A DNA stretch of 64,000 bases from a virus, in the IMG/VR virus record IMGVR_UViG_3300007639_000002, positions 1-64,000 of that record; one strand, given 5' to 3'. Under the pieces are notes generated by a model, which was not told the origin of the DNA, ran no database searches, and saw nothing but the letters and a program-made list of their open reading frames with translations. The position numbers were made by a program, and so were the translations under genes. Positions 3,802-54,845 of the stretch are shown in pieces; position 1 is the first letter of the stretch, and every line of letters starts with the position of its first letter.

Positions 3802-4573
3802 GTGAAACCCAGTCCATCAAGATCAATAAGTCTCCGTCACATTTGGCGCACTGAGTTTTCACCTCTTCCATTTTTGGACCCGGTGTGTCAGTGGTTAGCG
3901 CCTTTACCAACTTGTTTCTGTCGCCTAAATTCAACTTCTTTGCCCATGCTTCCGTATTATCTGGAGGGCTACCGTTCCAAGTGGAACAGCGTGACAACAT
4001 AAGCGTATTTTGTTCTGCCGTGGTTTTAGCCTTTTTTGCAACGTACAAACTATCCGCACCTGTCGGATAGTTTAATTTTACCACTGACCCATCCTTGAGT
4101 GTTACCTCAATGGGGGTGCGTAAATCACGCTTAGGTGGCTCTACTTTAAAGTCATCATCTAGATTAAGGGTTACAAAGTTTGTAGCATTGCAGTTTCCGC
4201 AACTTACTTCTAAGTCACGCATTCTGCCGTAGGTGGCTTTTACCGTGCCAATGAAAAGCATGTCACGGTCCCCAATCATAAGGTTGTCAATCAACCCGGG
4301 GTTCTCAGATACCTTTAAGTTGCCAATGCTTTGAACAGACCGTTCCAAAAGGATGGACATGTGCTCGGCGTATGACAATTCTTTCTTAGAGGATGCTGAA
4401 GCAACAACCTCTTCGTCTTCTCCAGTAAGTTCCCGGATTGAAGCATTGGTTTGCCATGCCCCTTCTACAGGGTCAAAAACACCCCTAAGCAACTCTACTG
4501 AGGTGTTAGGGGCATCATTGATGCGTGGGGCTGGGTCGGCAATAGCAGCGTTAGCCGCATTTGTATCTGACAT
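3788..4573 (-). CDS. Tail assembly chaperone / T4 gp26-like baseplate hub protein
   Basis: Between tube and tape measure; IRELTGEDE, GDRDML and two CxxC motifs. Confidence 0.65.
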   Translation of the reverse strand: MSDTNAANAAIADPAPRINDAPNTSVELLRGVFDPVEGAWQTNASIRELTGEDEEVVASASSKKELSYAEHMSILLERSVQSIGNLKVSENPGLIDNLMIGDRDMLFIGTVKATYGRMRDLEVSCGNCNATNFVTLNLDDDFKVEPPKRDLRTPIEVTLKDGSVVKLNYPTGADSLYVAKKAKTTAEQNTLMLSRCSTWNGSPPDNTEAWAKKLNLGDRNKLVKALTTDTPGPKMEEVKTQCAKCDGDLLILMDWVSLLFG

Positions 4574-5229: not shown

Positions 5230-6735
5230 TTAAAAGGTTTCTTTGACTTGGTTACCGCCAACAAACTGTGTGACGGAGATGACGATAAATTCAGCAGGTG
5301 CCTGAAGTGCAACGCCAATTTCTACGTGAACTTCACCAACTTCCATAGTGCCGTTTGTGTTGTTCGTGCTGTCACATGTGATGTAATAGGCTTCAGCCGC
5401 ACTACGCCCCTTCAAGCCACCCTGTGCCCAGAAGTTTGAAAGGAAGTTTGCAAGACGGGCTGAGATGTCAGACCACAAACGCTCACCGTTTGGCTCAAAT
5501 ACTGCAAATTGAGTTAATGCTTCCGCATTAGACTTAATGTAATTAAGGCTACGACGAACAGGTACATACTTTGTAATATCAGTCTTCTTAAGGGTGCGAG
5601 CACCATTTACAATAACGCCAGCGCCGGGAACACCCTTAAGGGTGTTGATATTGGAACTGTACAACGTGCCAATTTCTGCTTCGGTGAATGAGTTCACAAG
5701 ACCAAAACAGTTACGCACATCGTATGAATAACCAGCAGGTGCCTTAGCAACTCCACGCTCTGTGTCTACACGAGTGTAAAGACCAGCAAGTGCACCACCG
5801 GGGTAGGTGTCACGAAGTGCAGCAGTTCCTGATGTTGCAGGGTTTGACATCTTCAGCATTGGGTAATACACAGCGGCGTAAGATGAAACTGTGTAACCGG
5901 CAACGGCACTTAAAGCGCCTGCGCTAGTTGTAGCAGTTGCTAATGGATCAATAATTAAGAACGAGTTGCCACGTCCTTCAACATACGCAATTGCACCGTT
6001 GATAATCGTAGAGTTTGACTTACCTACAAGGTTGAAAAGGAGTTGACCCTGTACGGAATCAAAACCAGACAATGCGCTGGACCACGCAGTTTGCGTAGCA
6101 CCGGCGGTGTCGTCAGTCAAAGCAGCACCGGCAGCACCGGCGGTCAAAGTAGCGGTAGCACTAGTTACTGTGTAACTAGCACCAGCAAGGGAGGCTACGT
6201 TGAAAGTTCGGACATATGTAGAGTACGTATTGATAACGTTGTTAACAAAACGATTATTGTCAGGATCAAGACTAAGTTCACTCCAACGTTCTACTTCAGT
6301 ACCACTGTTTTTAACAACAATATTAAAAGTAGGTGTTGAACCTGTAACTAATCCACTTGAGATTTCGCTGGTTAAAGAGTTACCCCATGTACCAACGTTT
6401 GCTGCACGAACAGAAAACACAGTTCCAGAACTGTTACTGAAGGTTCCCGCAACGGTTGCTGCTGCGCTAGAAGCACCTGCACCTGCAACACGTGCAACAT
6501 AGGCAGTACGCCCACCATTTGCAAAGTAGTGGTAAACGGCATAACCTAAATCATATGAACTTGAAAGGTCACCAAAAAGTGATTTATAAGTACCCCAAGA
6601 ATCAACAAGGGTTGGTGTAGTTGGTCCACGGGAAGACGTGCCTAAAAAGGCAGTAGCAGTGGTGGTAGGACCGGTCACTACGGCGGTAGCAAAAGGTCCT
6701 TCGGTTACGTAAACACCGGGTGAGGTGTAAGCCAT
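5230..6735 (-). CDS. Tail sheath protein
   Basis: SPGVYVTE, YFANGG, KAPAG, GARTL, YVPVRR, VFEPN and PAEFI sheath motifs. Confidence 0.95.
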   Translation of the reverse strand: MAYTSPGVYVTEGPFATAVVTGPTTTATAFLGTSSRGPTTPTLVDSWGTYKSLFGDLSSSYDLGYAVYHYFANGGRTAYVARVAGAGASSAAATVAGTFSNSSGTVFSVRAANVGTWGNSLTSEISSGLVTGSTPTFNIVVKNSGTEVERWSELSLDPDNNRFVNNVINTYSTYVRTFNVASLAGASYTVTSATATLTAGAAGAALTDDTAGATQTAWSSALSGFDSVQGQLLFNLVGKSNSTIINGAIAYVEGRGNSFLIIDPLATATTSAGALSAVAGYTVSSYAAVYYPMLKMSNPATSGTAALRDTYPGGALAGLYTRVDTERGVAKAPAGYSYDVRNCFGLVNSFTEAEIGTLYSSNINTLKGVPGAGVIVNGARTLKKTDITKYVPVRRSLNYIKSNAEALTQFAVFEPNGERLWSDISARLANFLSNFWAQGGLKGRSAAEAYYITCDSTNNTNGTMEVGEVHVEIGVALQAPAEFIVISVTQFVGGNQVKETF

Positions 6736-21024: not shown

Positions 21025-21102
21025 GTGTGAGCACCCGGGAAGGAAAGGGGGACAACCCGGGTGCTCACGGGGCTGCTGGAAAAGAAGGGAAAACCAGCAG
21101 AC
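21025..21102 (-). ncRNA. Candidate two-hairpin sRNA with pyrimidine-rich (anti-SD-like) loops
   Basis: Own TATACT -10 at 21108-21113; perfect 7-bp and 13-bp stems; loops UUUUCCCUUCUUUU and UUGUCCCCCUUUCCUU. Confidence 0.55.
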
Positions 21103-24991: not shown

Positions 24992-25790
24992 TTTTTAATT
25001 TACTCCAAAAACTAGACTGTTCTTCCTCTTCAATTCTATCGTCAACAACTTTTACGTATCGCCTGTATGGGGCGGCAGTACCAATCGCAGGGATTGGTTG
25101 CAGCGGAGAATCCCCAAAACCTCTTCCAGATGAGAGTAAGTAATCATCCGTTGTACCCGTCACTATCTTTTCAAAATCTTTATTCCTTTTTATAGGAATA
25201 AGGTGAGCAATTGGCGTGCCGTACTTAATGTTAAAAGAGTTACCAGTAGTAATATTCAACACTACATTCATTGTGTGGTACACATCAGTATGCACAATGC
25301 TTGGGACTATCGTGTAGTTGGGATTTGGGTCAAATAGTGGAGGAAGTATCAAAGTAGACCATCCCGGAGCGGTACGCACCATGAACGGGTTTACTAATTT
25401 TGGGTAACCTGCGTCTTCTATTTCCCGAACGCTGGTCATAGGGCATTTACCAGTGGACTCAAAAGTAAATGGTTCATTTGAAAAGAAATTGCCAAAGGGC
25501 AGGTTTTCCATTTCAACACTCCACTTCAACTCTATATTTGGGTTGGGTGTGAAGTAAGCGTTTGACCAGAAGGGAAGCGTTGCCCCAAGAGACAAGTAGT
25601 CTAATGTCCCAGCACATCTGCGAATAGACCCTTGTTGTTTTGATGAGTTTTTAAACCAGTCCGGCAACGTCTTATGGGTATTTATGTAAGGGGATGCCTC
25701 TAGTAAACGCTCATCCCTTGGCATGATGAGTAGTTCACCTTCTTTTGGTTGATAAACATTTTTGTATAATCTGTGTTTTTTCTTAGTCAT
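24972..25790 (-). CDS. Hypothetical protein (possible beta-clip-like fold)
   Basis: PDWFK, RRC and KYGTPIAHLIP motifs. Confidence 0.5.
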   Translation of the reverse strand: MTKKKHRLYKNVYQPKEGELLIMPRDERLLEASPYINTHKTLPDWFKNSSKQQGSIRRCAGTLDYLSLGATLPFWSNAYFTPNPNIELKWSVEMENLPFGNFFSNEPFTFESTGKCPMTSVREIEDAGYPKLVNPFMVRTAPGWSTLILPPLFDPNPNYTIVPSIVHTDVYHTMNVVLNITTGNSFNIKYGTPIAHLIPIKRNKDFEKIVTGTTDDYLLSSGRGFGDSPLQPIPAIGTAAPYRRYVKVVDDRIEEEEQSSFWSKLKNGKRFF

Positions 25791-27270
25791 ACCTAGTTAA
25801 GTTTCTAAGAGATTCCGCATGATCTACCAATTCGTGGTTATTGCGTCCTGAGGATTTATCATACATATCTTTTTTAACAATATTACGAATACCTAGACGA
25901 TCTATTGCTCTAGTTGTAGATTGTATGTTAAGCACATTTTGTCCTTGTGCAACATGTATAAAATGACCAGACGAGAACAACCCGTAAAAACTACCAAAGT
26001 CGTCGTAACGCATAGGTGGTCTTTCAGACCACAAATCAAGCATTTCTTGTAGTGTGTCGTTTATTGGCATTTCCGATACTGCTTGCCAAAATGGTGTGTC
26101 TCGCCTATCACTGATGTAATGAAGACGAATCATTGTCAGCAAGTTATCCATAACACTGGACATCGCTTTGTTGTATTGCTTTTGTGAGTGCTTATAAGTA
26201 GGAGTATAACTTGCTAAATAAGGAATTAAAGCCTTTATTTGTTGGATAGTACTGCCAATGGATGTGGCCTCTAAAGGTTCCACAAATGACGAGGCAAGCC
26301 CCACAGCACAGCAGTTGTTAACCCAAGGTTTCTTTAAGTATCCGGGGTCAAACTTAAAGTGACGGTGTTTATCAAAAGAATAACCTGTTAGGTTAGATAA
26401 CTCTTCTGCTGCCTTATCCTCATCCATAAATTGTGAAGAGAATACATAGCCATTGCCACGTCGTTCCTGTGTAGGAATCTCCCACGCCCAACCTGAAGAC
26501 ATTGCCCGTGCTCTAGTGTATGGGCGTATTTGGTTAGAGGGGTCTGACTCTGTTGGGCCAGCAATAGCCGAGTCACAGAGTAAGTATTTACTAAACGACT
26601 CCCAATCGGTGTTTCCTATATGGGTCATTAGTACTTTGGAAAAACCGCTTGCATCAATCCAGAAGTCGCCAGATAAAGAGCCGTGAGTCTCCAGTACAAC
26701 AGATTCAATGTTTCCGGTCTCAGGGTTCTGCACCACGGACAGAACATCGTCGTCCATTAATTTTATGCCTCTCTCAAAGCATAAAGATTCAAAATAATTA
26801 TTTAATTTAAAAGTATCAAAATGAAATTGATTTGTATTTTCATGCAGGTTTACACGACGAATCTTATTTTCTGTCAAACCAGCAGACGTGGTTTGTATGG
26901 TTAATAGTTTTTCACGTTCTATAAACCCCATATAAGTTGGGTAAAGACCATAAGCAAAAATGGTCTCATCACCAGAAACGCTATGGAAGTAATCAGGGGT
27001 TTGACGTGTCCAATTTTCAAAACGAATCCCGTATTTGTGAGTAGCGTCTGTGCGTACTAATAATTCTTCAGTTGGTATCTCACAAATACGCATGAATTCA
27101 CGCCAGTGCTCAGTAGAGCCTTCGCCCACCCCTATTATCCCTACTTTTTTAGAAGAGACAACAGTAATGGATGAGTTTGAAAAGGCTTTTTGCAGAGATA
27201 ACGCAGAGATTAGACCAGCAGTTCCAGAACCAATTATGACAATATTTAAGTTGCTATTCATCTGTACCAC
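25783..27270 (-). CDS. Flavin-dependent tryptophan halogenase family protein (PrnA-like)
   Basis: GSGTAG, IGVGEGS, K in ATHKYGI, GWAWEIP and FVEPLEATSI motifs. Confidence 0.9.
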   Translation of the reverse strand: MVQMNSNLNIVIIGSGTAGLISALSLQKAFSNSSITVVSSKKVGIIGVGEGSTEHWREFMRICEIPTEELLVRTDATHKYGIRFENWTRQTPDYFHSVSGDETIFAYGLYPTYMGFIEREKLLTIQTTSAGLTENKIRRVNLHENTNQFHFDTFKLNNYFESLCFERGIKLMDDDVLSVVQNPETGNIESVVLETHGSLSGDFWIDASGFSKVLMTHIGNTDWESFSKYLLCDSAIAGPTESDPSNQIRPYTRARAMSSGWAWEIPTQERRGNGYVFSSQFMDEDKAAEELSNLTGYSFDKHRHFKFDPGYLKKPWVNNCCAVGLASSFVEPLEATSIGSTIQQIKALIPYLASYTPTYKHSQKQYNKAMSSVMDNLLTMIRLHYISDRRDTPFWQAVSEMPINDTLQEMLDLWSERPPMRYDDFGSFYGLFSSGHFIHVAQGQNVLNIQSTTRAIDRLGIRNIVKKDMYDKSSGRNNHELVDHAESLRNLTRYD

Positions 27271-37231: not shown

Positions 37232-38050
37232 TTACATATCCCAAGGAAGAGGGTACTTTTCAAAGTCCATGTCACCTGCTGGGTGATGGTGCTCTAAAAG
37301 ATCCTGAGGCTGGAAGAAGGATTCTCCTCCGGCTTTATCTTGAGCAAGCAACGCTTTCCATTCAGGATGTTTTGGGTCAGCAACTTTGTACTCACGCACC
37401 ATTTGGCCTTTACGAGATTGTTTTCCATCTATCATAGGATATACACGGGTGTCTGTAGGAATACTAGGAATTGGTGGTTGGCCCGATGTCCAAGAAGAGC
37501 CTGTACCGGTTTGGTAACGAGTATCGGCACCCATTAGTTCCATACCTTTAGCACGGATGGCTTGGCAACGAGGGTGTTCACAACGACCAGCAGTACGTAA
37601 CATAAATACACCAGTTTGGTATCCGGGGTTTTGTTTGTGAGTTTCGTAGTACCTAGATGGGGCACCACCAAATGCTCCTGCACCTGAACCAGCCATAGAA
37701 GGACGTAAAGACGCAGGGTCATCACCACTGGAGCCTTCGTCAAGTGACGGGTTCTTAACGTAGTCACCAGAACTTCCTGCTGCTTCTTCTGAAACTCTAG
37801 CGGCATCTATTTTATTAACAGAACCACCCAAGTTTACTGAGGTGCTCAGTCCAGCGCCACCACGTTGTGCAGAACGTGTACGTGCGTAAGCAGGATCAAC
37901 CCGTTCATTCATCCTACGAAGACCTTCTACTTGGTCAGCGGTAAAAGAACCATATGATTCTGCTTCAGGAGCGCCGGACTCAATACCGGCAAGTTCTGCG
38001 TCAGAAGGTCCACTTAGACCAGAAAACTGTGATGAGGAAAGATCAGGCAT
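37232..38050 (-). CDS. Hypothetical protein, leaderless-type start
   Basis: TAGAAT-N6-ATG; N-terminus MPDLSSSQF. Confidence 0.65.
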   Translation of the reverse strand: MPDLSSSQFSGLSGPSDAELAGIESGAPEAESYGSFTADQVEGLRRMNERVDPAYARTRSAQRGGAGLSTSVNLGGSVNKIDAARVSEEAAGSSGDYVKNPSLDEGSSGDDPASLRPSMAGSGAGAFGGAPSRYYETHKQNPGYQTGVFMLRTAGRCEHPRCQAIRAKGMELMGADTRYQTGTGSSWTSGQPPIPSIPTDTRVYPMIDGKQSRKGQMVREYKVADPKHPEWKALLAQDKAGGESFFQPQDLLEHHHPAGDMDFEKYPLPWDM

Positions 38051-44623: not shown

Positions 44624-44667
44624 ACGTCTAGTTTACATGTATACAACAGGTATACAAGTTCAATACA

Positions 44668-44683
44668 TGTTCCACGTGGAACA
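44668..44683. promoter_or_regulatory. parS: parS site 1
   Basis: Perfect palindrome TGTTCCACGTGGAACA. Confidence 0.75.
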
Positions 44684-45656: not shown

Positions 45657-45672
45657 TGTTCCACGTGGAACA
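45657..45672. promoter_or_regulatory. parS: parS site 2
   Basis: TGTTCCACGTGGAACA within a 20-bp palindrome. Confidence 0.75.
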
Positions 45673-45692
45673 TTCCTAGAGTTGGGGCTATA

Positions 45693-45708
45693 TGTTCCAC
45701 GTGGAACA
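45693..45708. promoter_or_regulatory. parS: parS site 3
   Basis: TGTTCCACGTGGAACA. Confidence 0.75.
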
Positions 45709-45766
45709 TTGGTGCGGAGCGTAGGCAGGTATCCACCTACCCACACCCACCCAGCCATTGCTGGCA

Positions 45767-47646: not shown

Positions 47647-47826
47647 TCACGAATCCTGCCGTGTGTCCATGTTCCACAGAATGCACTTAGCATCTTTTAA
47701 GATGTTGTATAGATTCATCTCTTCCCATGTCATGCCATAGTACCCATCACGCTGGGTCAAATCAGCCATGAACATAGTAAGCGTTTCATACATTTCAGTG
47801 TTGGTTATTTTCTTTGCTGTTTTCAT
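47647..47826 (-). CDS. Cassette protein (59 aa), leaderless
   Basis: Hand-translated MKTAKKITNTEMY...; stops at the in-frame TGA inside the repeat. Confidence 0.7.
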   Translation of the reverse strand: MKTAKKITNTEMYETLTMFMADLTQRDGYYGMTWEEMNLYNILKDAKCILWNMDTRQDS

Positions 47827-47865
47827 ATCTTCACCTTACCATGTAGTCGGGTTGAGTCACGATTC

Positions 47866-47942
47866 CTAGTGGGTATATTTGGTTAGATTAGCCTCAATAT
47901 ACCAGTGAGGTGCTTTCCCCGCTAACCATGCGGGTTTTCGTT
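47866..47942 (-). ncRNA. Candidate double-pseudoknot small RNA cassette
   Basis: Own repeat promoter, no credible ORF; two hairpins whose loops (UGGUUA, GGUAUAU) pair with adjacent 3' tail segments (UAACCA, AUAUACC). Confidence 0.65.
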
Positions 47943-47981
47943 AATCCCAACTTACCATGATGGAGTGTTGGGTTACGATTC

Positions 47982-48050
47982 CTAATAAAGGATGGCATTC
48001 AATGCCTTAGGAGGTGTCATGAATGCCACCCTCTATTAGTTGTCGTCGTT
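47982..48050 (-). ncRNA. Candidate hairpin sRNA displaying anti-Shine-Dalgarno CACCUCCU
   Basis: Own repeat promoter; 20-bp stem with two G-U pairs on - strand; 18-nt loop. Confidence 0.6.
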
Positions 48051-48089
48051 AATCCCAACCTACCACGTGGGTAGGCTGGGTCACGATTC

Positions 48090-48296
48090 CTAGAGGCTGA
48101 TATGCGCTCCTGAGAGCAAGTCTTCAACCTCATTGCGGATGGTGTCGCTGATGCTGTCACTGAAAGATGAGTTATCAGTGAAATCGTATTCATGGAGGAT
48201 GTCGTTAATGCGATCCTCCAAAGCATCTACTACTTGGTTCATTACCTTGTCACTGATTGCATTGACAAGTTGATTAAGCAATTCTTCCATGGTCAT
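48090..48296 (-). CDS. Acidic cassette protein (leadered; also the C-terminal part of a 141-aa fusion)
   Basis: Own promoter at 48354, CA-rich leader, GAAAGG SD; repeat TAG stop. Confidence 0.7.
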   Translation of the reverse strand: MTMEELLNQLVNAISDKVMNQVVDALEDRINDILHEYDFTDNSSFSDSISDTIRNEVEDLLSGAHISL

Positions 48297-48515
48297 GTTG
48301 TTAGTGCCTTTCGTTGTTGTTGATGAGTTCACTTTATCAGGTGGTTGTACTGAGTCACGATTCCTAGACTCCATGGCGATTTGCTCTTCATGATACTCAC
48401 GTAATAACTCTACGGTATAGTTCATGTAGATACCCTTTGCCATGGCATCTTCTACTTCAGTCTTTGCCATTAGTAAATGGAACACTTTAAGTTGTTGTTG
48501 CGTTTCGTTGTTCAT
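48090..48515 (-). CDS. Leaderless cassette protein fused in frame through the 48354 repeat
   Basis: ATG 48515 at +1; repeat read as SRNRDS. Confidence 0.55.
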   Translation of the reverse strand: MNNETQQQLKVFHLLMAKTEVEDAMAKGIYMNYTVELLREYHEEQIAMESRNRDSVQPPDKVNSSTTTKGTNNMTMEELLNQLVNAISDKVMNQVVDALEDRINDILHEYDFTDNSSFSDSISDTIRNEVEDLLSGAHISL

Positions 48516-49397: not shown

Positions 49398-49652
49398 CTA
49401 CAACTCAAAAGAATGCAGTATCTTAGACGTTTCGTCTTGTGAATGTTTATTGGATGTCCAAAAGTGAACCTCTGTACGTGTGTAGATACCACCATGGCAC
49501 ACCATGCCTAGGCGATTACGTGCTTCTTTTTCTGCACGTTCTTCATTGTCGTAGTCTGCACCACCTACGTAGTCTTCGTTGTTGTCCCAAAAGTGTACTG
49601 TGTACCCTGAAGCAATATCTTGATTCATGTTGTTGCCTTTCGTTGTTGTCAT
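49398..49652 (-). CDS. Cassette protein (leaderless ATG plus in-frame SD-led ATG at 49628)
   Basis: ATGACAACAACGAAAGGCAACAACATG. Confidence 0.75.
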   Translation of the reverse strand: MTTTKGNNMNQDIASGYTVHFWDNNEDYVGGADYDNEERAEKEARNRLGMVCHGGIYTRTEVHFWTSNKHSQDETSKILHSFEL

Positions 49653-51329: not shown

Positions 51330-51402
51330 GTTGTTATCCTTTTGTTGTTGGTTGTTGTTACTGAAGTTACTTTATCATGTTGTTGTTATGAGTGGCGAAT
51401 CC

Positions 51403-51475
51403 TGTGGAATACACCGATTTCTACGACTAGGGGAAACAACAACGAAACCCTAGGAGCAAACCGATGTACTCCACA
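51403..51475 (-). ncRNA. Candidate hairpin RNA with loop antisense to the cassette (ACA)n starts
   Basis: 18-bp stem with three G-U pairs, inner 6-bp stem, loop UUUCGUUGUUGUUUC. Confidence 0.55.
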
Positions 51476-54425: not shown

Positions 54426-54845
54426 CTACGTAGCGTCACTCATGACGAATGCCGATACACAAGCCTGCTCGTACTCTTCTGCATTGCGTACCCCATAGAA
54501 GAAATGGTCACCAGCACCTGTAGTAATCTCTGCCCACGTCATCAGTGAGTCTGTTGTGATGTCTCCATTGTCTAGGATCACTGTTCCCCACATAGCGTCG
54601 GCAACAGACATGACGTACTCTTTAATGTTTTCAGCCATATCAAAATGATCTACGTAGTCAATACGCCACCTGCCTTCACAGGGGAACCCACTCTCTAGGT
54701 CTACTGGCTCATTCTCATTGGCAGGTATAAACCCCACAAGTGTAATGTCATCTACATTCTCCACCAGCATTGCTAGGCGGTCATACTTTTGGTTAGAGTC
54801 CGATGGCACTACGCACCTCTTCTTCGCAGGCTTCACGTGCTTCAA
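54426..54845 (-). CDS. Acidic hypothetical protein (start uncertain, possibly 54770)
   Basis: Repeat TAG stop. Confidence 0.6.
   Translation of the reverse strand: MKHVKPAKKRCVVPSDSNQKYDRLAMLVENVDDITLVGFIPANENEPVDLESGFPCEGRWRIDYVDHFDMAENIKEYVMSVADAMWGTVILDNGDITTDSLMTWAEITTGAGDHFFYGVRNAEEYEQACVSAFVMSDAT

Follow-up and report, generated by a model that had tools for sequence, protein, structure and literature searches.

A cassette without a gene in an uncultured lake phage carries a hairpin with an anti-Shine-Dalgarno-like loop: a candidate small RNA

Among the regulatory small RNAs (sRNAs) of Gram-positive bacteria, RsaE/RoxS and the 3' hairpins of S. aureus RNAIII are characterized by C-rich loops, and in RNAIII the terminator hairpin itself bears a pyrimidine-rich loop resembling the anti-Shine-Dalgarno (anti-SD) sequence. 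Other hairpins delimit transcripts. Intrinsic terminators have loops of 3-8 nt, with paired A and U tracts in the bidirectional type, and the early RNase III sites of T7 contain internal loops and are located between protein genes on one long transcript. In Actinobacteria, the 6C sRNA (6C/B11) binds mRNAs via C-rich loops without the help of a chaperone (PMC6486639). Finally, in the PeSL cassettes of T4-type phages, genes are shuffled at repeated early promoters associated with stem-loops (PMC2839356, PMC4122927).

The locus presented here belongs to an uncultured lake phage, known from a 79,143-bp IMG/VR viral contig (completeness estimate: 86%) whose first 64 kb are hereafter called 'the window'. 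Tail sheath, portal, large terminase and other structural proteins are encoded on the minus strand of this contig. The large terminase is nearest to those of Streptomyces BRock-like phages (47% identity), no close cultured relative was found for the helicase, and no DNA-level match of the contig to GenBank phages was retrieved by megablast. An actinobacterial-type host is a guess, the likeness of the terminase being only suggestive. No tRNA or tmRNA gene was found. The structural, late region also includes a 495-aa protein of the phage tryptophan-halogenase family (25783-27270, minus strand; phrog_2928, E 3e-109), and a hairpin with a perfect 13-bp stem and a 16-nt C/U-rich loop, UUGUCCCCCUUUCCUU, is placed on the minus strand at 21027-21068, in the interval that separates the end of a small gene (21117) from the start of the terminase gene (21000).

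Genes of this phage seem to be divided according to the sequence preceding their start codon. Late structural genes display strong Shine-Dalgarno (SD) sequences, e.g. TAAGGAG or TTAGGAG, the latter being that of the sheath gene, which starts at 6735. Between 40439 and 44985, eight consecutive genes are preceded by gTAAACT (or TATACT, TAGAAT) ending exactly 7 nt 5' of the ATG, without any SD-like purine run, and the same pattern is retrieved near 38050, 38483 and 34765. This gTAAACT-N7-ATG arrangement constitutes a second apparent class of leaderless promoters, next to the one found in the array described below, so that early and middle genes look leaderless (TAAGGT-N6-ATG, TAAACT-N7-ATG) and late genes look SD-led. 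Close to these genes, perfect parS-type palindromes, TGTTCCACGTGGAACA, are observed at 44667-44683, 45657-45673 and 45693-45709, adjoining a 99-aa ParB-like ORF. Such a palindrome also separates small genes in a distant relative, the IMG/VR contig L140 (positions 2261, 2588 and 2887), where it replaces the promoter repeat.

This promoter repeat, TAGGAWTCGT(G/C)AC, is present in 33 copies between 45124 and 58001 of the window, all but three on the minus strand, two of them standing back to back at a strand switch near 56.0 kb (56012, minus; 56015, plus). Downstream of every copy come 17 nt (frequently with TGn at their end), a TAAGGT-like hexamer and 6 nt, then, in 23 copies, an ATG which usually continues with ACAACAAC. 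Copies lacking the ATG at this position (48364, 47656, 54426, 51402 and 53257) exhibit instead a CA-rich tract, which forms the leader to a separate SD and start. These copies lead us to regard the hexamer as an extended -10 box and not as an SD and, together with the position of the ATG in the others, most cassette genes as leaderless. The TAG of the upstream gene usually lies within the repeat, as in 19 cassettes other than the one under study. Sigma-70 consensus promoters are depleted in the array (17 versus 30.7 in shuffles), and canonical U-tract terminators are not enriched in the phage (20 found versus 12 expected, and 23 versus 20), whose other gene-end hairpins lack U tracts. Strong stems in the array are limited to the hairpin studied here (48039-47982), to a second one at 51473-51404 and to a spacer hairpin (48080-48054), i.e. 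to 2-3 of the 33 repeats; several other repeat spacers contain short palindromes that include GTGAC. Just upstream of the studied cassette, the repeat at 48364 lies inside a 141-codon ORF (48090-48515, minus strand) with its TAG out of frame, and is followed by a CA-rich leader, GAAAGG and an ATG at 48296. This ORF looks like two cassettes fused through a frame change.

The cassette of interest and its neighbour comprise the following features.

48051-48092, minus strand: copy of the promoter repeat, from the alignment of the 33 copies and the sequence.
48092-48080, minus strand: core of the repeat, TAGGAATCGTGAC, whose TAG (48092-48090) is the stop codon of the upstream gene.
48065-48057, minus strand: putative extended -10 element TGg-TAGGTT, from the repeat alignment.
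48056-48051, minus strand: GGGATT discriminator, from the sequence.
48040-48050, minus strand: predicted transcription start (+1, A48050) and 11-nt CA-rich 5' tail, AACGACGACAA; no ATG at +1.
48039-48020, minus strand: 5' arm of the hairpin, CUAAUAGAGGGUGGCAUUCA, from the sequence, the fold and the stem scan.
48019-48002, minus strand: 18-nt loop, UGACACCUCCUAAGGCAU, from the sequence and the fold.
48001-47982, minus strand: 3' arm, UGAAUGCCAUCCUUUAUUAG, its last three bases being the TAG of the next repeat.
47982-48020, minus strand: 12-codon ORF MTPPKALNAILY plus stop, the sole ATG-started ORF, entirely within the hairpin.
47867-47984, minus strand: adjoining sister cassette without ORF, from the repeat alignment.

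The promoter function of the repeat copy at 48051-48092 is one that we infer from its geometry. A48050 occupies the position at which 23 other copies have the A of their ATG, and the CA-rich tract of the 5' tail is also the leader of SD-led cassettes. An earlier note on this DNA, made from the letters alone, had placed a repeat promoter at 48080 with a +1 at 48050 and no ATG, and the repeat alignment agrees on all three points; whatever else the note stated about the sequence itself is correct as well. The spacer of this promoter (48054-48080, minus strand) can itself form an 11-bp hairpin (CCCAGCCUACC / GGUAGGUUGGG) spanning the -10 box. Concerning coding capacity, the 12-aa ORF which the same note had listed as an alternative is present and does end in the TAG of the next repeat. 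Its SD-like GAGGGUGG (48033-48026) is carried by the 5' arm, five nt 5' of the ATG at 48020. Compared with a protein-coding cassette, for which a plausible ORF length and an accessible start would be expected, the unit offers 12 codons and an SD and AUG that are paired in every predicted folding intermediate, from 41 nt onward.

The hairpin itself (48039-47982, minus strand) consists of 58 bases and begins 11 nt past the predicted start at 48050. All 20 of its 20 positions pair, as the earlier note had claimed and as both a reading by hand and the fold confirm. Two of the pairs (48033/47988 and 48029/47992), G-U in the minus-strand RNA, would turn into A-C mismatches in a plus-strand copy; accordingly, the predicted fold is more stable for the minus strand (-35.9 kcal/mol, z -7.7, with none of 200 shuffles as good) than for the plus strand (-32.3 kcal/mol, z -5.7). 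That the two departures from Watson-Crick pairing become G-U only on the minus strand, which is also the strand of the array, suggests selection on the minus-strand RNA, and the preference of the earlier note for this strand stands. Among the unbroken stems of 10 pairs or more that a scan of the entire contig (79,143 bp) brought up, this one is the longest of the minus strand apart from two adjacent parS palindromes, and the hairpin ranks among the most stable 70-nt windows of the contig. By our own arithmetic, approximately 2e-4 stems of 20 pairs (with at most two G-U pairs and loops of 3-26 nt) would be expected by chance in 158 kb of random sequence. Taken as a whole, the hairpin is probably a selected RNA-level element of the minus strand.

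Folding of this RNA during its synthesis is predicted to go through several stages. UAG-AGGGU would first pair with ACCUC-CUA (-8.3 kcal/mol), GGCAU-UGA-AUGCC would form next, and the long stem would displace both early structures as soon as the 3' arm has been synthesized, so that three pairings exclude one another (GGGUG/CACCU, GGCAU/AUGCC and the long stem). In the 3' arm, the upper part, UGAAUGCCAUCC, gives way to a U-rich tract, UUUAUUAG, which pairs with an upstream A-rich tract, and the upper 12-bp stem is predicted to reach -20 kcal/mol just before UUUAUU is transcribed. No described family was recognized: the whole window gave 0 Rfam hits at gathering thresholds, and a cmscan of 47800-48150 with E-values up to 10 returned only chance matches to microRNA precursors and Trp leaders, and none to 6C.

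The 18-nt loop contains, at 48016-48009 on the minus strand, CACCUCCU, a copy of the sequence by which the ribosome docks onto mRNAs, in agreement with the earlier report of a 16S anti-SD sequence in this loop. With 3 occurrences of CACCTCCT on both strands of the contig (158 kb) versus approximately 2.4 expected, the motif is not common in this genome, and its place in this loop is therefore unlikely to be owing to chance. It is mostly masked: CCU (48014-48012) is paired with AGG (48007-48005) in approximately 94% of the predicted ensemble, so that the masking already suspected in the earlier note is borne out, and all eight bases of the motif are unpaired in approximately 2% of the ensemble, for an opening cost of about 2.5 kcal/mol. 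The loop GGCAU (48006-48002) can alternatively pair with AUGCC (47998-47994). Moreover, the motif is complementary to the purine-rich, SD-like 5' arm of its own hairpin and, because loop bases pair with this arm in the predicted co-transcriptional folding, the motif may act purely in cis. Read on the plus strand, these bases give TTAGGAGGTGTC-ATG, i.e. an ordinary SD and start, with CATG at the stem-loop junction.

In predicted duplexes with SD-containing starts, the loop performs about as well as or better than the generic 16S tail (-9.3 versus -6.8 kcal/mol for a TTAGGAG-type site). Binding at or below -8 kcal/mol is predicted at 35 of the 84 non-array gene starts, versus 22% of random windows, as can be expected of any anti-SD-like sequence. 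A genome-wide duplex scan for extended, specific targets gave none at a ribosome site, complementarity being generic to SDs and not exceeding 7-8 bp; with one exception (76763), itself compatible with chance, the best matches of the loop across the genome are not at starts. Anti-SD-like 5-mers are little enriched in intergenic RNA (3.9 per kb, the value for coding sequence being 3.0 per kb), and this very locus supplies 6 of the 22 intergenic ones.

The second long hairpin of the array (51404-51473, minus strand), directly upstream of the repeat at 51402, contains CUCCUAGGG and has a loop, UUUCGUUGUUGUUUC, which is antisense to the CA-rich 5' ends of cassette messages. The 12-mer ACAACAACGAAA has 3 exact and 10 one-mismatch matches on the minus strand, nearly all of them at cassette 5' ends, with none in shuffles, and the loop of this hairpin is its only minus-strand complement. 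In the relative L112, the hairpin is approximately 100% conserved (4207-4327; 120/121) within a region that is approximately 90% identical. In at least one of its hairpins, the phage thus maintains a loop antisense to translation-start regions, which makes loop-antisense regulation plausible in this phage and raises the prior for the hairpin studied here.

The sister cassette possesses the closest relative of the studied promoter (81% identical; TAAGTT at 47954-47949, putative +1 at 47942). Its payload combines a CCCGC/GCGGG hairpin with an unpaired, exposed GCACCUCAC (CACCUC), and its tail segments UAACCA and AUAUACC are complementary to its two loops, making a double pseudoknot possible. It has no Rfam match, and its payload shows no significant similarity to that of the studied cassette, as 509 of 1000 shuffles score as well.

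Relatives of the array were retrieved, at 90-98% identity, but all end short of the locus. A promoter-pattern scan of IMG/VR identified 12 contigs, of which only L011, starting at window position 54828, is a relative; among the matches listed in a metagenome scan, mostly chance single matches, L112 (covering 55734-48507) and L070 (43040-45435) alone are relatives. A stricter promoter pattern found no match among genome contigs. For the locus itself, neither megablast nor blastn detected a homologue in GenBank phages, and no IMG/VR sequence matched an exact pattern combining the arms with the loop core. At the repeat junction near 48507, L112 carries a different, SD-led gene (7290-7520 in L112), and an indel of approximately 120 nt separates it from our contig near 49640. 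As regards flanking genes, a single database relative, P0002 (76% identical, encoded on a 1,348-bp JGI contig), was retrieved for the upstream 68-aa gene; L140, which encodes an IMG/VR relative of the same gene (53%), is without repeat and hairpin, as are L141-L143, which carry relatives of the 327-aa gene. No viral relative was found for the downstream 59-aa gene.

We place first, although only tentatively, a reading of the unit as a small RNA gene: its hairpin would terminate the transcript that contains it, and the loop would pair with ribosome sites of the SD type. Transcription would start at 48050 from one copy of the array promoter and yield the 11-nt CA-rich tail plus a single 20-bp hairpin. 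The G/C-rich upper stem and UUUAUU would most likely end or stabilize the transcript near 47984, for an RNA of approximately 66-70 nt. The apical loop would then present CCUCCUA(A), the core of the 16S rRNA 3' tail, and loop-to-single-strand pairing would occupy SD regions, the best candidates being the TTAGGAG and CTAGGAG late sites of the phage and strong host SDs. SD-dependent initiation would be damped and leaderless early messages left untouched, in a mode of action comparable to that of the C-rich-loop sRNAs of Gram-positive bacteria.

This reading is ranked first because it explains at once why a promoter is dedicated to a unit that lacks a gene, why the two G-U pairs favour one strand, and why the loop is oversized and contains the motif. 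A full promoter repeat with no ATG at +1, a 12-codon ORF, a short tail and a terminal hairpin make up the classic layout of an sRNA gene. It is further favoured by the exceptional stability of the stem, by the rarity of the loop's CACCTCCT, the duplexes predicted with TTAGGAG-type sites and the 35 of 84 non-array starts predicted to bind the loop, as well as by the second hairpin, both conserved and antisense to 5' ends, and the exposed CACCUC of the sister cassette; 6C provides a precedent (PMC6486639). Against it stand the pairing of the motif in most of the predicted ensemble, the ordinary SD and ATG of the plus strand, the lack of a locus homologue in the databases searched, the short complementarity to phage sites, the absence of a general enrichment in anti-SD 5-mers and the dissimilarity of the two sister payloads. 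Furthermore, the phage's own late genes would also be targeted by such an RNA, so that its timing would need control. The SD-sequestering sRNA of the earlier note is therefore retained in part: the promoter cassette without gene, the strand asymmetry, the split between leaderless and SD-led genes and the second hairpin speak for it, whereas the mostly masked motif, the partner available in cis and the lack of an extended target do not. Within the sRNA reading, a global decoy titrating all host SDs would be the least likely form on stoichiometric grounds, and the damping of strong or TTAGGAG-type sites appears more plausible. A bolder version, in which hairpin RNAs made from the promoter type of the leaderless genes, mimicking the anti-SD tail and complementing the CA-rich 5' ends, would together constitute an RNA-only switch from SD-dependent to leaderless initiation, later releasing the SD-led late genes, is a speculation that we consider improbable.

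The ordinary explanation, nearly as likely as a small RNA gene, is that the hairpin only punctuates transcripts, as a terminator or attenuator, or as a site for RNase III, other processing or 3' stabilization, and that the loop has no function in trans. It would stop or cut read-through from the approximately 30 co-directional promoters and insulate the next non-coding unit, a promoter being present only because the stop codon of each gene sits in a promoter repeat. At 20 bp, a perfect duplex is as long as an RNase III substrate. The hairpin directly adjoins the following repeat, just as the one at 51473-51404 adjoins the repeat at 51402, and its upper 12-bp stem, preceding UUUAUU and bordered by A- and U-rich tracts, recalls bidirectional intrinsic terminators. 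A terminator scan flags only the nested 5-bp hairpin at 48006-47994 (GGCAU-UGA-AUGCC followed by AUCCUUUAUU). The loop motif, for its part, could be explained in cis by its complementarity to the 5' arm, and stem-loops located by repeated early promoters in T4-type PeSL cassettes have been shown to terminate transcription (PMC2839356). However, a loop of 18 nt is far outside the usual range of intrinsic terminators and too long for a plain one, so that something else should account for it, and the rare 8-mer that it contains is left unexplained. U-tract terminators are, in addition, not a habit of this phage, and a stem-loop found at so few repeats is not part of the repeat unit. Lastly, a promoter firing straight into a terminator would be wasteful unless the RNA is the product.

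Rather unlikely is a leftover without selected function, i.e. a decayed cassette that has lost its gene by repeat recombination and holds a palindrome, born of a template switch or an inverted duplication, which has not yet eroded. Cassettes are indeed swapped at repeats, as illustrated by the different gene and the indel of L112, and no homologue of the locus was found in GenBank phages or IMG/VR. As the 5' arm resembles, with 75% identity, the spacer and -10 region of a further copy of the repeat (49163-49144), and cassettes usually begin with ATGACA, the unit may be repeat debris. However, both departures from perfect pairing preserve the RNA pairing on the transcribed strand, which we calculate to have a chance of approximately 1/16 to 1/36, and the stem is otherwise perfect over 20 bp where relatives diverge by approximately 10%. 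The comparable hairpin at 51473-51404, moreover, is under strong purifying selection.

Less probable still is a translational switch in cis around the 12-codon mini-gene, where the loop (CACCU) and the 3' arm would alternately sequester the SD, GAGGGUGG, and the AUG. Ribosomes translating the peptide would open up the hairpin, so that transcription or translation could go on downstream, in the manner of a leader-peptide attenuator. The well-spaced GAGGGUGG-N5-ATG after the usual CA-rich leader reproduces the layout of SD-led cassettes, the ORF ends like 19 other cassettes, and three mutually exclusive pairings are available for switching. Ribosome loading nevertheless looks unlikely with an SD sequestered in every predicted intermediate from 41 nt; the 12 residues show no hydrophobic or regulatory signature, and an in-frame TAG is a 1-in-3 chance.

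A DNA-level or plus-strand element (a protein-binding inverted repeat, a cruciform, or a plus-strand RNA with TTAGGAGGTGTC-ATG and its 6-codon ORF, MNATLY, in the loop) is very unlikely: although the locus does contain a 20-bp inverted repeat with an 18-bp spacer, a canonical SD and ATG on the plus strand and a weak sigma-70-like match on that strand (47852-47879), both the DNA palindrome and a plus-strand RNA are made weaker by the two mismatches, which leave the minus-strand RNA unaffected, the plus strand runs antisense to the entire array and holds only a 6-codon ORF, no second copy of the arms exists anywhere in the contig, and sigma-70-like matches are fewer than in shuffles (17 versus 30.7), so that the one at 47852-47879 carries no weight. 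A CRISPR-repeat mimic, a retron ncRNA, a CsrA sponge and a replication origin were dropped, as their anatomy does not fit.

Returning to the described systems, the small RNA gene favoured here can be compared with each in turn. T7 early RNase III hairpins resemble the element by their long stem, of about two helical turns, located between co-directional early units. Bidirectional intrinsic terminators share the approximately 12-bp G/C-rich stem, the UUUAUU after it, the complementary A-rich tract before it and a hairpin predicted to form before the U tract, but differ by the size of the loop, in a phage with no enrichment in U-tract terminators. The array as a whole is close to PeSL cassettes, as small early orphan genes are flanked by one repeated promoter (33 copies), genes are exchanged at the repeats (as in L112) and a stem-loop can stand immediately upstream of a promoter. 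However, PeSL cassettes possess a stem-loop in every repeat, SD-led genes and sigma-70 consensus promoters, whereas the stem-loop is not constant here (2-3 of 33 repeats), the promoter is non-consensus (GTGAC, 16 nt, TGnTAAGGT), the genes are mostly leaderless-looking and the studied unit carries no gene at all. If the hairpin proves to be only a terminator or a processing site, it would represent the ordinary punctuation of a PeSL-like array, and the interest would then lie in the array.

The element would work most like the C-rich-loop sRNAs, with which it shares a pyrimidine-rich, anti-SD-like loop, theirs pairing with G-rich ribosome-binding regions without any long seed. It differs from them by having one hairpin and one loop, CCUCC instead of a run of C, partial self-pairing of this loop, and a location in a phage genome inside a promoter-cassette array. 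It is yet not a member of the 6C family (RF01066), as it gives no covariance-model match and forms a single hairpin rather than at least two with C-run loops. The RNA-only switch, should it exist, would amount to a host takeover at the level of the translation-initiation mode. More modestly, a small RNA acting on ribosome sites would offer a testable handle on how a virus may favour one mode of translation initiation, in a genome which seems to split its gene classes by mode. Provided that such an RNA is produced and that its loop does bind to ribosome sites, the C-rich-loop sRNAs of Gram-positive bacteria would have a counterpart encoded by a phage.
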